Shown piece by piece: positions 9,585-30,794 of a stretch of 32,000 bases of DNA (its first letter is position 1; each line of letters starts with the position of its first letter). Where the stretch lies: the NCBI RefSeq assembly GCF_900699765.1, contig NZ_CAADHO010000006.1:71770-103769 (forward strand), read 5' to 3'. This DNA is from Desulfoluna butyratoxydans (GTDB lineage: Bacteria; Desulfobacterota; Desulfobacteria; Desulfobacterales; Desulfolunaceae). The notes under the pieces were generated by a model. The model had not been told where the DNA came from, did no database searches, and was given only the letters and a program-made list of their open reading frames with translations. A program made the translations under genes and the position numbers.

Positions 9585-9595
9585 GCCCGTTGCCA

Positions 9596-9790
9596 CTGTT
9601 CAGCTCAAAAAAAGCCTCCGGCGGCCCTGCCGGGGGCCAAACTTTTAAAAAGTTTGACAAACAGGTCTTGTGACGGTCTCGGCTCCGCTGAACGTTATCA
9701 GCACGCCGACCGTATCAAACGTATGGGGTCTGTATCGAAATGTTTTTGCGGAGCTTTTTTCAAAAAGCGACCCGCCGGAGGCAACTGAGT
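9596..9790. repeat. Mosaic intergenic repeat cluster R1: M2(+) 9614-9666 and M3(-) 9748-9782, bounded by inverted 12-mers
   Basis: gcctccggcggc at 9614-9625 and the inverse cccgccggaggc at 9771-9782. The M2 module recurs at 11836-11901(-), 18830-18881(-), 28294-28344(+) and 29622-29673(-). M3 is near-identical to 29520-29560(+). Confidence 0.85.
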
Positions 9791-9911
9791 TGGCACACGC
9801 GTTGGCCCTGTTTTAAAAGCGGATTGCCCTTGTGCTTCCCCCATGATTGCGATGCCTGGAAGAATCGACTGGGATGGTTATGAAACAGATTGATTTTTTT
9901 TACCTGATAAG

Positions 9912-9924: not shown

Positions 9925-9975
9925 AAAAAAGTGGATTGGCCATTCTGCCGTCTCATTTTACCCAAGGAAGATATC

Positions 9976-11585: not shown

Positions 11586-11907
11586 TTGTAACTATTCAGC
11601 TCCAAAAAACAGCCTCCAGAGGCAAGGTGTGCCACCTTGAAAGCAGGTAGCGGAAGTGATTTGACCCTCGTTCCTCGGGGCAAATCACTTCCGCATTTAT
11701 TAATGAGACCGAATCTCAGTCGACATACCCATGGCTTTGGTTGTGATTATATTCAGTGCCTTAGGATCAATCGAATGTCGGGTGTAATATGACCCCATTA
11801 GTAAAACGACATTCATGCAAATATTTTTTTTATGACCTGTTTGTTAAACCCAAGGCATCTAAATTGGCAAAAGTTTAGCCCCCGGCAGGGCCGCCGGAGG
11901 CTTTTTT
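11586..11907. repeat. Mosaic repeat cluster R2: M1(+) 11612-11694 (H1, H2), AT-rich interior, degenerate M2(-) 11836-11901
   Basis: gcctccagaggc at 11612-11623 (2 mismatches). H1 is AAGGTGtgcCACCTT at 11624-11638. H2 has a 14-bp perfect stem at 11650-11694 with the loop accctcgttcctcgggg. gccgccggaggc at 11890-11901. The cluster is flanked by an A-run and a T-run. Confidence 0.85.
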
Positions 11908-11916
11908 CTTTTTTCC

Positions 11917-18723: not shown

Positions 18724-18881
18724 GTAACTATTCAGATCAAAAAAGCCTCCGGCGGCCAGGTGGGGCACCTGGAAACCCTGTGGCGAATGCTTGACGGCTG
18801 ACATCAAGTGGCCGCTTTCGCAGGGAAGGCCTGTTTGTTAAACGTTTCAAAAGTTTGGCCCCCGGCAGGGCCGCCGGAGGC
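18724..18881. repeat. Mosaic repeat cluster R3: M1(+) 18745-18800 (H1 CAGGTGgggCACCTG) and M2(-) 18830-18881
   Basis: gcctccggcggc at 18745-18756 and gccgccggaggc at 18870-18881. The outer flank gtaactattcagatcaaaaaa is shared with R2 and R6. The cluster lies 13 nt downstream of the selU stop. Confidence 0.85.
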
Positions 18882-18894
18882 ATAATTCCCCTGT

Positions 18895-20264: not shown

Positions 20265-20917
20265 CACAGGGTTTGCCGGATTTCGTCCCAGAAGGCCAGG
20301 GCATGGTCCGGCAGGGTGGAGACGGGGCGCCCCGTGGCCAGGGCGCTGTGGTAGACCTTGGCGATTTTTTCGAGGAACTCGGCGTTCCTCAGGGCCTGCT
20401 TGAGGGATCCCCCTAAGTTCAGGGCGCCGTGGTTCTGCATGATAAAGCAGGCGCAGCCATTGGTGACGGCATCGCCCACCTGGGCGGCCAGGGCGTCGGT
20501 GCCGCTGATGGCATAGGGGATCACCGCCACCTGGTTGCCGATGTGCATGGTGATCTCGTCAAAAAGGGGCGGGATGGGGGTGTTGAGCACCGAAAAGATG
20601 CTGGCGTGGAACTGGTGGGTGTGGGCCACAGCCCCCACGTCCGGGCGCGCCTTGTAAATGGCGGCGTGCATCCCCGCCTCGATGGAGGGCTTCAGGTCCC
20701 CTTCCAGCCGGTTGAGGTCGAAGTCCAGCAGGCAGATGTCCTCTGGGGAGAGTTCGTTGTAAGGCACGGACGACGGGGTGACGGCAAAAAGGTTTTCACC
20801 GGGCACCCGCGCTGAAACGTTGCCCCCGGAGCTGAGGTGGGAGCCGAAGTAGTTGTTTTCCGAAAGCCAGAGGGCCGAATCCAGGACCTCCTGCTTGATG
20901 TCGATGGTTGCGTCCAT
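20264..20917 (-). CDS. Class II aldolase/adducin-domain family protein
   Basis: Start at ATG 20917 (MDATIDIKQEVLDSALWLSEN...). His cluster AVAHTHQFH and NHGALNLG are typical of the FucA/AraD-like fold. Confidence 0.8.
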   Translation of the reverse strand: MDATIDIKQEVLDSALWLSENNYFGSHLSSGGNVSARVPGENLFAVTPSSVPYNELSPEDICLLDFDLNRLEGDLKPSIEAGMHAAIYKARPDVGAVAHTHQFHASIFSVLNTPIPPLFDEITMHIGNQVAVIPYAISGTDALAAQVGDAVTNGCACFIMQNHGALNLGGSLKQALRNAEFLEKIAKVYHSALATGRPVSTLPDHALAFWDEIRQTL

Positions 20918-21017
20918 ATGTAGAGAGACTCCTTCCTGGCACCACCCGGGCGATACCGGGAGGCCTTCGTTTTTCAAGGTGGATATCGTGTATCGATGAT
21001 CCATTCAGTTTAAAAAT

Positions 21018-21561
21018 GTCTTCTATGGTTAAAGTTTGGCCCTAAAAGCGTGCCTCCGGCGGCGAGGTGAGCCACCTCGAAAGCTGGTAACCCTTGCGCT
21101 TCGTCCCTCGTTCCTCGGGCCAAAGCGCAAGGGCCTTAGCCTCGGGCTTCGCCCGACATAAACGCTGATGGTTTATGCGAGCTGGTTCACACGCTTCGAA
21201 GTTGGAGGATATGATGTCGCTGCTTGTCCATTATCGACTTAACCGTATTGCCCTGCCGGGGACCCAACGTTTAATCCGCCTTCGCCCATGTCCAAGGGGT
21301 ACGGCGCGACAAGCGAGAGGGAAAGCGCATTCGCCCCCTGTCTTCGAGGTGTCACACCTCGCCGCAGGAGTTATTTCGGTTAAAGGCAAGCGGCTCCCTA
21401 ATGCCCTTCATCGGGTTTGCAGAAAAATAAAATGGGCCTCTCCTGCAAAAGCGGTTGCCATATGTCACAGGCCACGCGAATGCCTCGAAAACGTCAGCAT
21501 GATGTGTCCCTCCATGCATTCGCCATAGGGTTTCCAGGTGCCCCACCTGGCCGCCGGAGGC
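21018..21561. repeat. Mosaic repeat cluster R4: M1(+) 21018-21177 (H1, H2, H3), a degenerate M1-type unit (-) about 21200-21372, and an M1 unit (-) about 21385-21561
   Basis: 12-mers at 21052-21063 (+), 21361-21372 (-, degenerate gccgcaggagtt) and 21550-21561 (-). H1 copies at 21064-21078, 21346-21360 and 21535-21549. H2 at 21091-21133, H3 at 21142-21156. Confidence 0.85.
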
Positions 21562-21765
21562 CTGCTTTTTCAACCCGCTTTATCCATGGAAGGCAATCTG
21601 AACAATGCCCAAACATGTTAGTATAGGCCCCCGGCATGGCACCGTAAAGAAGATTGTGGTGCGGGCTTGTGTCTGCCTGCGGGATACGATAAGAATGGGG
21701 AATTTCTTCGTAAATATCGATTGGATTGCAACAGGGCGGTGACCCATCGCCCGGGGAGTGTCGTT

Positions 21766-27094: not shown

Positions 27095-27466
27095 GCCTCC
27101 GGCGGCAAGGTGTGCCACCTTGAAAGCAAATTACCGCCGGGCTTTGTCCCTCGTTCCTCGGGTCAAATCCCAGCGGTATTCTGGAGAACCATTGTGTGAT
27201 TATTTATTTCCGACAGCCTGAGCTGGCAAGCGTTCCAGCTTACGCTGAAAGGCCGCACGCAAGATCCGTGGCCTGTGATACCTGAATTTCCTTGATTGAT
27301 TGAAATGCCGTTGTGATGTGCCCATGGGGTGAATCGCAGCGGCATTTTTTTTTGCTTGAAACAAGCGTAACGTCCCCCTTCTCATTGGTTTTTACGGGCA
27401 AAGCCCGTCAGCACATGTGACGAACCCGAGGCACGAGGGTTCGGAGCATGTGCGAACCTGGGAGGC
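27095..27466. repeat. Mosaic repeat cluster R5: M1(+) 27095-27178 (H1, H2), about 200 bp of interior, truncated M1(-) 27394-27466 (H3, H2, partial 12-mer)
   Basis: gcctccggcggc at 27095-27106. H1 AAGGTGtgcCACCTT at 27107-27121. H2 at 27132-27178. On the minus strand, H3 is acgggctttgcccgt (27394-27408), H2 is at 27411-27453, and gcctcc is at 27461-27466. Confidence 0.8.
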
Positions 27467-27506
27467 ATCGCTTGAAAAGGTGCCCTTCCGACTGTAAAAT
27501 ACCCCC

Positions 27507-28280
27507 ATGAATATGAAACTCTTTGATACCCATGCCCACCTTCAGGATCCCCGTGTGGCAGGGGATATGGACGCCATGATGGCCCGGGCCCGCTCCGTTG
27601 GGGTTGCCCGCGTCCTTTCTTGCGGTACCCGGGAAGAGGACTGGGGGGCGCTGGCAGGGCTTGCCGGCCGCCATCCCGAGATCCTTCCTGCGTTCGGGGT
27701 GCACCCCTGGTTCATCGAGACCCTTTCCCCGGACTGGGTCAATGCTTTAGGGCAGCGCATGACAAACGATGCGGCCGCCGTGGGGGAGATCGGCCTTGAT
27801 TTTGCCGTGGACGGCCTGGACCGGGGCAAGCAGGAGGCGGTGTTTCTCTCCCAGCTTCGGCTGGCCAAGGCCTTGAGGCGGCCTGTCTCCATGCACTGCC
27901 GCAAGGCGTGGGGCCGCCTGGTGGAGCTTTTAAAACAGGAAGGGGGCCTGCCCCATGGCGGCGCCATCCATGCCTTCTCCGGCTCCGTGGAGATGGTCCG
28001 TGAGTGCCTGCGCCTCGGCGCCTTTTTCTCTTTTTCCGGCTCCATCACCCGCCCGGCCAACCACAAAGCCAAAAAAGCCGCGGCTGCCGTGCCGGACCAT
28101 CGGCTTTTGATTGAAACCGACAGCCCGGACATGCTCCCGGCTGAGGTTCCCGGGCCTTTGAATGAGCCCGCCCATGTGATACACGTCGTGAACACACTGG
28201 CCGCCGTACGCGAAACCACCCCTGACGAGATCGCCCAAACCACCTGGGAGAATGCGGTGCGGTTGTTTGGAGGTAACTAA
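27507..28280 (+). CDS. TatD-family metal-dependent hydrolase (DNase)
   Basis: Motifs DTHAHL, GEIGLDF, SMHCR, HAFSGS and ETDSPD. ATG 27507 or 27513; no clear RBS. Confidence 0.85.
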   Translation: MNMKLFDTHAHLQDPRVAGDMDAMMARARSVGVARVLSCGTREEDWGALAGLAGRHPEILPAFGVHPWFIETLSPDWVNALGQRMTNDAAAVGEIGLDFAVDGLDRGKQEAVFLSQLRLAKALRRPVSMHCRKAWGRLVELLKQEGGLPHGGAIHAFSGSVEMVRECLRLGAFFSFSGSITRPANHKAKKAAAAVPDHRLLIETDSPDMLPAEVPGPLNEPAHVIHVVNTLAAVRETTPDEIAQTTWENAVRLFGGN

Positions 28281-28606
28281 TCAGCGCCAAAAAGCCTCCG
28301 GTGGCCCTGCCGGGGGGCAAGCTTTTGAAAAGCTTGACAAACAGACTTTAAAATTGCCCCTCCTCCTTGGAGGTAGTCCGGTTAAAGCTGATAATTAACG
28401 AGTTCCGATAATGAATCTTAGCCCTTCAAGGCTTGTCGTATCGCTCGTACAAACCACCAGCATATGTTTCGGGCGAAGCCCGAGCCGAAGGCCCTTGCGC
28501 TTTGGCCCGAGGAACGAGGGGCAAAGCGCAAGGGCTATATGCTTTCGAGGTGGCTCACCTCGCCGCCGGAGGCAGGCTTTTCCATGCACTTTAACCATAG
28601 AAGGCA
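28273..28606. repeat. Mosaic repeat cluster R6: M2(+) 28294-28344 and M1(-) 28440-28606 (H3, H2, H1, 12-mer, outer flank)
   Basis: gcctccggtggc at 28294-28305 and gccgccggaggc at 28562-28573. H1 at 28547-28561, H2 at 28492-28534 (13/13 bp), H3 at 28469-28483. The M1 unit is roughly 85% identical by eye to 21018-21177 in inverted orientation. Confidence 0.85.
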
Positions 28607-29362: not shown

Positions 29363-29384
29363 CCTCGGGTCTCCTGTACCTGGC

Positions 29385-29690
29385 TCAGTTTGCCTCCGGC
29401 GGCCAGGGAATGAATTCCCTGGACCCCAGTTCGCACATGCTCCTTCCCTTCGTTCCTCAGGGGCGTCACATGTGCTGGCGGGCTACGCCCGCAGGGTCAA
29501 CGCATTTAAAAATTCAGTTGCCTCCGGCGGGTCGCTTTTTGAAAAAAGCTCCGCAGAAACTTTCCGGTAATAAAAAAAGAAGGGGCTATGCCCTGTAGGG
29601 ACGCATTCTCAAAAAACAAAACCTGTTTATCAAACTTTTCAAAAGGTTGGCCCCCGGCAGGGCCGCCGGAGGCTTGTTTGGCCTGAATGA
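29385..29690. repeat. Mosaic repeat cluster R7: M1(+) 29392-29492 (H1, H2, H3), M3(+) 29520-29554, M2(-) 29622-29673
   Basis: 12-mers at 29392-29403 (+), 29520-29531 (+, gcctccggcggg) and 29662-29673 (-). H1 CAGGGAatgaatTCCCTG at 29404-29421, H2 at 29433-29475, H3 gcgggctacgcccgc at 29478-29492. Confidence 0.85.
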
Positions 29691-30724: not shown

Positions 30725-30794
30725 CTAAGGCAAAAGGCAAAAGGCGAAGGGCTAAGGGCAAAGGGCAAAGGGCTAAGGGCTAAGGGCTAAAGGT
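30725..30794 (+). repeat. Tandem heptanucleotide repeat, about 10 units of NAARGGC (TAAGGGC/AAAGGGC)
   Basis: The units read ctaaggc aaaaggc aaaaggc gaagggc taagggc aaagggc aaagggc taagggc taagggc taaaggt. Six consecutive GGG tracts are spaced by 4 nt (30749-30786). Confidence 0.9.

Follow-up and report, generated by a model that had tools for sequence, protein, structure and literature searches.

Compensatory base pairing and strand polarity in M1, a hairpin module of a mosaic mobile repeat family in Desulfoluna

Introduction

Whether the hairpins of repetitive extragenic palindromes (REPs), bacterial interspersed mosaic elements (BIMEs), and miniature inverted-repeat transposable elements (MITEs) are kept for the moving DNA or for the RNA made from them is an old and mostly unresolved question. 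BOX, ERIC, and Correia elements, which are modular or palindromic intergenic repeats, are co-transcribed and can alter mRNA stability, processing, and termination; they fold mainly through their own inverted ends or as one long palindrome. Here we analyze M1, a hairpin module found at positions 21052-21156 of a stretch of 32,000 nucleotides from Desulfoluna butyratoxydans (RefSeq assembly GCF_900699765.1, contig NZ_CAADHO010000006.1, positions 71,770 to 103,769, forward strand), together with the repeat family to which it belongs. The whole stretch is hereafter called the window, and its G+C content is 59.7%.

Complete copies of the repeat bear terminal inverted repeats (TIRs) that resemble the ends of one insertion sequence (IS) family. 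ISDge4, an IS66-family element of the ISBst12 group, has the TIR GTAACTGCTCAGCA and an 8-bp direct repeat (PMC12898284). The inverted repeats of IS66 start with GTAAGCG and are likewise accompanied by 8-bp direct repeats (PMC11946415). The TIR of the Desulfoluna repeat agrees with that of ISDge4 at 11 of 14 bases.

Results

M1 belongs to an abundant family of intergenic repeats

In the copy at 21052-21156, a 12-mer, GCCTCCGGCGGC, is followed by the hairpins H1, H2, and H3 (Table 1), and the region folds as predicted on either strand. The initial annotation had recognized further copies of this module in which the hairpins stay paired while their sequences change. Every one of the eight H1, six H2, and four H3 sequences that it quoted was found at its given coordinate and strand. 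One correction concerns the extent of the repeat, which does not stop at the 12-mer: complete copies run outwards through a linker and a 14-nt TIR.

Both conserved parts of M1 are strongly overrepresented. The 12-mer occurs 15 times in the window at ≤1 mismatch (0.42 expected) and 473 times in ~815 kb of DNA under the same criterion, and the H2 apex, CCCTCGTTCCTCGGG, occurs six times in the window at ≤2 mismatches (0.25 expected). A covariance model for M1, built from related copies, found nine copies in the window, all of them intergenic, and at least 333 matches in 788 kb of Desulfoluna and Desulfolunaceae DNA. Many M1 copies are decayed, and there are several longer M1-bearing subfamilies that differ in their 5' extension. 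The 12-mer itself is carried by at least three kinds of module, namely M1 (subfamilies A, B, and C), M2, and M3, and intergenic regions are typically flanked by inverted 12-mers. Module M2 is made up of the hairpin GCCTCCGGT-GGCCCT-GCCGGGGGG followed by an AU-rich palindrome.

Loci for comparison came from a scan of species-representative genomes, for which the query was the H2 apex plus four flanking bases, and comprised at least 101 loci of 8 kb. Among the matches listed, nearly all were from Desulfoluna limicola, D. spongiiphila, a Desulfolunaceae metagenome-assembled genome (MAG), a Desulfoluna sp. MAG, and a 'Desulfobacteraceae' MAG, and the nearest listed loci were 76-85% identical to the window in genes, which places the window in a further species. 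The Rfam search that had been proposed was run with Rfam 15 and matched no family: there was no match at the gathering score in the window, and none at E ≤ 10 in 20900-21700. A literature search returned nothing relevant on Desulfoluna repeats or on the 12-mer itself. With no Rfam family and no paper describing M1, the repeat family is previously undescribed.

Base pairing of H1 and H2 is retained through compensatory changes

Covariation was analyzed in an alignment of 145 non-redundant M1 copies from at least five genomes, oriented to end with the complement of the 12-mer. Twenty-four pairs were scored (14 lower and 3 apical pairs of H2, and 7 pairs of H1). Copies were selected by the apical stem only; the lower stem and H1 played no part in the selection. 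Standard pairs made up 92.9% of the H1 and H2 cells, compared with 35-47.5% when the 3' partners were slid by 1-3 columns. Changes on both sides were seen at 22 of the 24 pairs and in 406 cells, against 91 ± 16 cells after shuffling, and none of 500 shuffles reached any of the observed measures. The compensatory pairing claimed for H1 and H2 is therefore well founded.

A minimum spanning tree of the 145 copies contained 145 double changes from one paired state to another. A further 119 single changes left pairing intact by way of G:U, and 148 created or abolished a pair. The H2 lower stem was distinct in 135 of the 145 copies, with 58 different basal 8-mers. Given this diversity and the double changes between paired states, the H2 stems do not go back to a handful of recently duplicated masters, a possibility that the initial annotation had itself raised. 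Pairing kept through at least 145 double changes argues for selection on a single-stranded secondary structure, as had been proposed.

The individual hairpins differ in how they vary. The closing pair of H1 is A-U in 74 copies, G-C in 35, and C-G in 33, and the next pair out is C-G in 134 and G-C in 9. Hairpin H4 and the AU-rich palindrome of M2 likewise covary. Covariation had been claimed for H3 too. Its closing pair does vary (A-T 41, T-A 9, and G-C 9, among 68 copies with H3), but the core CGGGC/GCCCG is near-invariant in 63 of these 68 copies, and the covariation is accordingly thin.

Unpaired columns vary freely and the H2 loop is fixed. In 227 copies found by the 12-mer and H1 only, the 9-nt loop GAGGAACGA was exact in 153 and had one mismatch in 22.

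Three copies in the comparison loci (L064:4792-4887, L037:1668-1763, and L097:1831-1918) have H2 lower stems wholly unrelated in sequence, with up to 19 perfect pairs; they carry the usual H2 loop, except for one copy with a different loop. Whole-stem replacement seems to occur besides stepwise compensation.

The selected structure lies on one strand

Strand asymmetry and folding energy were assessed in 195 M1 copies. At positions 2-14 of the H2 lower stem, read on the strand that has the 12-mer first, the non-Watson-Crick cells were C:A or A:C in 226 cases and G:T or T:G in 28. This excess of C:A means that the G:U wobbles, and therefore the selected structure, are on the opposite strand. It is present in every arrangement of neighboring genes. 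Mutation bias was rejected as the source of the G:U excess, since substitutions in unpaired columns lean the opposite way (C>T plus A>G, 71; G>A plus T>C, 130). The predicted strand folds better in 182 of the 195 copies, with mean energies of -45.0 versus -38.1 kcal/mol. The same strand is favored by a fixed U:G (T:G) in the M2 hairpin and by three G:U pairs in an alternative 3' hairpin described below. What had been offered as a weak hint of polarity is now a strong signal: the structure is read H3, H2, H1, GCCGCCGGAGGC, and then a U-run.

The position of this U-run agrees with the proposal that an RNA would end at the 12-mer complement plus a T-run, as at least four U (T in the DNA) lie within 12 nt in 137 of the 195 copies (70%). 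When the 3' part of subfamily A is folded, the lowest-energy structure is a hairpin (-17.8 kcal/mol) that closes at the 12-mer complement, with 1-4 nt between it and the U-run. The H1-H2 linker of this subfamily, GAAAGCTGGTA, can pair with the 12-mer complement as an alternative terminator-like hairpin. This alternative 3' hairpin (GCUUUC..GGUGGC with GCCGCC-GGAGGC) fits all of subfamily A and is the predicted minimum-energy form; it shows no covariation and fails in subfamily B, and we set it aside except as a possible later folding state.

Complete elements have TIRs and 8-bp target duplications

In complete elements the TIR, GTAACTATTCAGCT, is outermost and is followed by a short linker and the 12-mer. 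The end sequences GTAAC(T)ATTCAGCT ... AGCTGAATAGTTAC bound 21 elements that range from 130 to 510 bp. Matches to a single TIR numbered 161 in the loci, and in every one the linker, the 12-mer, and a module come next. Target duplications at the 21 TIR pairs included five perfect 8-bp repeats (ACATTTGA, CTCCTTTT, CTCGAAAG, GATGCTCT, and CTAAATTC) and several that match at 7 of 8 positions; the chance expectation for one perfect 8-mer match is ~1.5e-5. TIRs and 8-bp duplications are the marks of a MITE derived from a DDE transposon. A complete element is ~210 bp long; M2 and M1 (or M3) usually occupy its opposite ends and share one sense strand. No Pfam family was found for window positions 21175-21528 within the repeat.

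Movement is also evident from the region upstream of an aldolase gene, which holds the 21052 copy and has four states in four genomes. It is empty in one (L104), contains one complete element in a second (L102) and one and a half in a third (L103), and is occupied in the window by a 600-bp array with three to four modules.

A BLAST search of the complete element against plasmids gave a sole match, of 31-32 nt at the M2 hairpin. This hairpin, GCCTCCGGCGGCCCTGCCGGGGGC, is ~97% identical to a site 14 nt past a coding sequence of IncP-type plasmids (L105, NZ_CP078010.1:1875-1905, and 15 others) of Aeromonas, Klebsiella, and Pseudomonas. Either the two sequences converged on a terminator or they have a common origin.

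M1 copies lie near gene ends and are sites for other mobile elements

Copies of M1 are found across the chromosome, in both orientations, among housekeeping genes such as feoB, tatD, thiF, and the aldolase gene. The 12-mer end generally lies a median of 13-15 nt past stop codons, and there is a modest excess of 12-mer ends that face the 3' end of a gene (98 versus 63). Orthologous positions mostly carry different subtypes, with unrelated H2 stems between species, which fits replacement and divergence alike. At window positions 28273-28287, the stop codon of a tatD-like gene (TAA, 28278-28280) is inside the TIR-like end GTAACTAATCAGC, and the repeat therefore supplies this gene's stop codon.

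Two 100% identical copies of a 2099-nt group II intron were identified in D. limicola, at L079:592-2690 and L036:5868-7966 (both on the minus strand). The intron has a reverse transcriptase (RT) and maturase open reading frame (ORF) and matches the Rfam family group-II-D1D4-3. Its insertion point is identical in two M1 copies with different H2 stems, namely between H1 and H2 after GAAAGCTGGTT, and M1 is for this reason a homing site for the intron. Class C group II introns home beside terminator stem-loops, which would fit a terminator-like M1 end if the D. limicola intron belongs to that class.

An IS110-family transposase gene (L037:1958-3391) adjoins an M1 copy (L037:3460-3480) whose 12-mer is cut to ...CCGGAATAA/CTCCGGCGGC. 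The junction motif of this locus, GAAATAACTCCTGCGGC, recurs in the window at 21346-21385 on the minus strand and in other loci, which suggests that an IS110-type element targets the 12-mer. IS110-family elements target REPs in other bacteria. Ten foreign-looking ORFs in the loci, which cover ~13% of a genome, belonged to the IS110, Mutator, and group II intron RT families, with no IS66 among them.

Other features of the window

The features of the 21052 copy and the other copies and modules of the window are listed in Table 1. Three further observations stand apart from the structure of M1. Just outside a repeat end, at ~9791-9806 and ~125 nt upstream of an ORF starting at 9931, the sequence TGGCAC-N5-TTGGC is close to the sigma-54 promoter consensus. 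Tandem 7-nt units GGGCTAA/GGGCAAA (CCCTTAG on the other strand) occupy 30729-30784 and recur in the flanks of L010, L011, and L061; in several genomes they are intergenic and adjoin M1 repeats. Finally, the segment 23700-24560, between the aldehyde:ferredoxin oxidoreductase gene and feoA, has a third-position G+C of ~0.5, compared with 0.74-0.88 in neighboring genes, and no convincing gene call; relatives have a small FeoB-associated gene there.

Table 1. Coordinates, in window positions, of the M1 copy at 21052-21156 and of other repeat modules
Feature	Position	Strand	Notes
Degenerate outer end of the 21052 copy, TIR-like ATCCATTCAGTT plus 'TCTTCTATGGTTAAAGT' linker variant	20996-21043	+	Inferred by alignment with intact ends GTAACTGTTCAGCTATGCCCTCTATGGTCAACGTG...; ~8/12 bases match the TIR core
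U-run of the RNA-sense strand, AAAAGCGT on +, ACGCUUUU on -	21044-21051	-	At least 4 T within 12 nt past the 12-mer complement in 137/195 copies
12-mer GCCTCCGGCGGC, RNA sense GCCGCCGGAGGC, common to M1, M2, and M3	21052-21063	+	
H1 hairpin GAGGTG-agc-CACCTC, 7 bp counting the flanking C-G pair	21064-21078	-	
H1-H2 linker GAAAGCTGGTA	21079-21089	-	
H2: variable 14-bp lower stem, conserved A.G mismatch, CCC/GGG apical stem, conserved 9-nt loop GAGGAACGA (RNA sense)	21090-21134	-	
H3 hairpin TCGGGC-ttc-GCCCGA	21142-21156	-	
5' extension (RNA sense) of subfamily 'A3'	21157-21240	-	197-nt inverted repeat with 28385-28581; alignment of 17 subfamily copies
H4 hairpin CATAAAC-gctgatg-GTTTATG, within the A3 extension	21157-21177	-	Covarying
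TIR-like end plus 12-mer plus M2	9592-9671	+	
M1 copy	11604-11697	-	Covariance model, 103 bits
M2 module	11850-11913	-	
M1' variant	18737-18818	-	Covariance model, 46 bits
M2 module, one composite element with 18724-18818	18826-18893	-	
Decayed M1 fragment, junction ...GAAATAACTCCTGCGGC in place of the 12-mer	21310-21380	+	Covariance model, 35 bits
M1' variant: H2 base, H1, and 12-mer kept, H2 apex different	21473-21569	+	Covariance model, 49 bits
M1 copy, directly after the feoB stop codon	27087-27180	-	Covariance model, 103 bits
M1 copy without H1 and 12-mer	27408-27474	+	Covariance model, 34 bits
TIR-like end (GTAACTAATCAGC) plus 12-mer plus module M2	28273-28349	+	
M1 copy, RNA sense on +, same subfamily as the 21052 copy	28488-28581	+	Covariance model, 105 bits
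M1 copy, subfamily B, H1 CAGGGA-atgaat-TCCCTG	29384-29478	-	Covariance model, 63 bits
M2 module	29622-29685	-	

Discussion

M1 is a structured module of a mosaic, non-autonomous mobile element that is lineage-specific and very high in copy number in Desulfoluna and Desulfolunaceae, and we consider it moderately probable that it is an RNA 3' cassette with a terminator-like end. In complete elements the order is TIR, linker, 12-mer, M2, spacer, M1 (or M3) in inverted orientation, 12-mer complement, U-run, and TIR. Transposition, with its 8-bp target duplications, would probably be carried out in trans by an IS66-family (ISBst12-group-like) transposase. The stems are kept by selection on a single-stranded form of one defined strand. 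The U-run, the wobble pattern, and the absence of replichore bias make RNA the most likely form, rather than single-stranded DNA (ssDNA). As RNA, M1 may form a compact 3' domain of two or three hairpins, with a terminator-like hairpin and U-tract facing out of the element, and its likely role would be to stop or stabilize transcripts that leave the element. The M1 end may have been inherited from the 3' end of the transposase transcript of a parent IS, with M2 as the left end; given such an origin, the 30 nt that separate M2 from H2, which are poorly conserved, could be a deletion junction.

Several observations weigh against this reading. As for the terminator, only part of the 12-mer complement of subfamily B lies within a hairpin and ~7 nt separate that complement from the U-run, the alternative 3' hairpin lacks covariation, and a simple terminator scanner did not call most copies. 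As for transcription, M1 shows no preferred orientation relative to the upstream gene (77 same, 79 opposite), and the RNA-sense strand is antisense to both neighbors in 56 of 143 cases, so many copies would need an internal promoter. The sole promoter-like motif, TTGAAA-18-TAAAAT on the sense strand of M2, is weakly conserved, and reading it as a sigma-70 promoter is unconvincing with such weakly conserved hexamers. G:T wobbles are tolerated in ssDNA hairpins as well. Rapid gain and loss of copies between species, the decay of many copies, and their random orientation and frequent antisense placement speak against a host-level role for each copy. As M1 is one part of a mosaic repeat that moves (MITE/BIME-like), selection may act mainly on propagating element lineages and not on each copy for the host. 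As for mobility, a recognizable TIR is nearby in just ~15-30% of M1 copies, and 67 of 185 copies are solo; either TIRs decay while M1 stays, or M1 spreads in another way too. No autonomous IS with these ends was found, and no two TIRs form a pair 0.9-4.5 kb apart, in loci that cover ~13% of a genome.

An unlikely alternative is that ssDNA rather than RNA is selected, and that the hairpins, especially the imperfect GC-rich palindromes bearing the 12-mer, are recognized by a copying machinery, whether REP/RAYT-like, an IS200/IS605-like tyrosine transposase, or one using them as cis sites of a DDE transposase. The independence of the strand asymmetry from neighboring gene orientation would fit a property of the element itself. 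The M2 hairpin is REP-like, in that it is GC-rich, imperfectly palindromic over 24 nt, and marked by a single fixed G:T, and the repeats are targeted by an IS110-family element and a group II intron, as REPs are elsewhere. Compensatory changes are documented in mobile REPIN hairpins, which have been modeled as ssDNA (PMC3116915). The absence of TIRs from most M1 copies points the same way. However, replication-coupled transposition of ssDNA is expected to leave a replichore-linked strand bias, and the 57 copies mapped to the D. limicola chromosome showed none. No obvious purpose in DNA suggests itself for the conserved U-run or the terminator-like 3' hairpin. Single changes that preserve pairing through G:U almost match double changes in number (119 versus 145), the usual pattern in RNA, and the TIRs and 8-bp duplications of complete copies mark a DDE transposase, not a Y1 transposase. 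No RAYT gene was found, though no search aimed at one was made.

The element might instead be a self-contained small RNA gene, in which a promoter in M2 would drive a ~130-nt transcript that ends at the M1 terminator and acts in trans through the GAGGAACGA loop and GGAGG, for example by titrating a CsrA-type GGA-binding protein or by mimicking a ribosome-binding site. This is improbable. It would account for the order of the M2 hairpin and the TTGAAA-18-TAAAAT motif on the sense strand, and for the single sense strand common to M2 and M1. The loop, exact in 67% of copies found independently of it while the stems vary, suggests a partner in trans, and GGA or GGAGG can be read in both the loop and the 12-mer complement. 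On the other hand, the promoter-like hexamers are poorly conserved, with the -10 often without its final T; one third of copies are solo and have no M2; copies are gained and lost rapidly between species; and no Rfam family matches. There is a slender chance that M1 is, more broadly, not mere transposon baggage, and that its hundreds of copies are expressed as structured small RNAs or 3' untranslated region domains carried by the mobile element. On that account the invariant GAGGAACGA loop and the single-stranded GGAGG could be bound by a global factor, such as a CsrA-type protein or the anti-Shine-Dalgarno sequence of the ribosome; if so, the family would form a genome-wide regulatory or titration layer in which the varying H2 stem is a mere scaffold.

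That no structural selection operates, and that complementarity arises from template-switch correction of quasi-palindromes, gene conversion, or a few master copies, is highly improbable: although each stem is palindromic as DNA and the family is multi-copy and recombining, and the unrelated H2 stems at orthologous positions look like replacement and less like gradual change, template switching gives perfect Watson-Crick arms and cannot make G:U outnumber C:A 8:1 on a single strand, the fixed A.G mismatch inside H2 (columns 15-42) is incompatible with it, and the 135 distinct stems of 145, their 58 basal 8-mers, the freely changing unpaired columns, and the fixed loop all speak for selection.

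Other candidates were considered and dropped. Integron attC sites, suggested by the variable stems of a conserved structure, do not fit, as M1 occurs in both orientations among housekeeping genes and has no RYYYAAC/GTTRRRY cores. A tRNA-like structure, a CRISPR, and an omega or bridge RNA were likewise discarded, given both orientations among housekeeping genes, no associated ORF, and no Rfam match.

Structured intergenic repeats are a familiar class; this family is new, and its strand-specific structural signal is unusually clear, while its function is what we infer. For the old question of whether such hairpins serve the moving DNA or its RNA, the Desulfoluna family is unusually clean material: its copies number in the hundreds in each genome, its freely varying stems have undergone at least 145 compensating double changes, an 8:1 asymmetry of G:U against C:A fixes the strand, and complete copies show clear transposon hallmarks. 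Much of the intergenic DNA of Desulfoluna, a marine sulfate-reducing and organohalide-respiring genus, is built from this one modular repeat, which brings likely terminators near gene ends and is a landing pad for a group II intron and apparently for an IS110-family element. In annotation of this lineage, the M1 covariance model would explain many puzzling conserved intergenic structures.

Comparison with known systems

Compared with BOX, ERIC, and Correia elements, the Desulfoluna repeat folds differently, through hairpins inside the element whose stems vary while the loop is fixed, and it has no sequence similarity to them and no Rfam match. Like intrinsic terminators, its RNA-sense strand is predicted to end in a GC-rich hairpin and then a U-tract; unlike them, the U-tract is 1-7 nt off the hairpin, a large conserved domain (H2 and H3) lies upstream, and the orientation is untied to the upstream gene, termination here being predicted. 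With MITEs derived from IS66-family elements (ISBst12 group, for example ISDge4 of Deinococcus geothermalis), it shares TIRs that start with GTAAC (GTAACTATTCAGCT here, GTAACTGCTCAGCA in ISDge4) and an 8-bp duplication, and it is also small, non-coding, present in many copies, and present or absent at orthologous sites. It differs from these MITEs in that structured modules which can replace one another (M1A/B/C, M2, and M3) make up a mosaic interior and in that most M1 copies have lost, or never had, a TIR.

The repeat resembles the REPs, BIMEs, and REPINs of enterobacteria and pseudomonads in being extragenic, in its hundreds of copies, in its GC-rich imperfect palindromes arranged as inverted pairs within mosaics, and as a landing site for the IS110 family and an intron. 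In both, the hairpins are kept by compensatory changes (PMC3116915). REPINs are without TIRs or target duplications and depend on RAYT, whereas complete Desulfoluna copies have both TIRs and 8-bp duplications, which rules out identity with REPINs. The Desulfoluna module is also longer (95-200 nt), with three to four hairpins, a conserved 9-nt loop, and a polarity that points to an RNA ending in a U-run.

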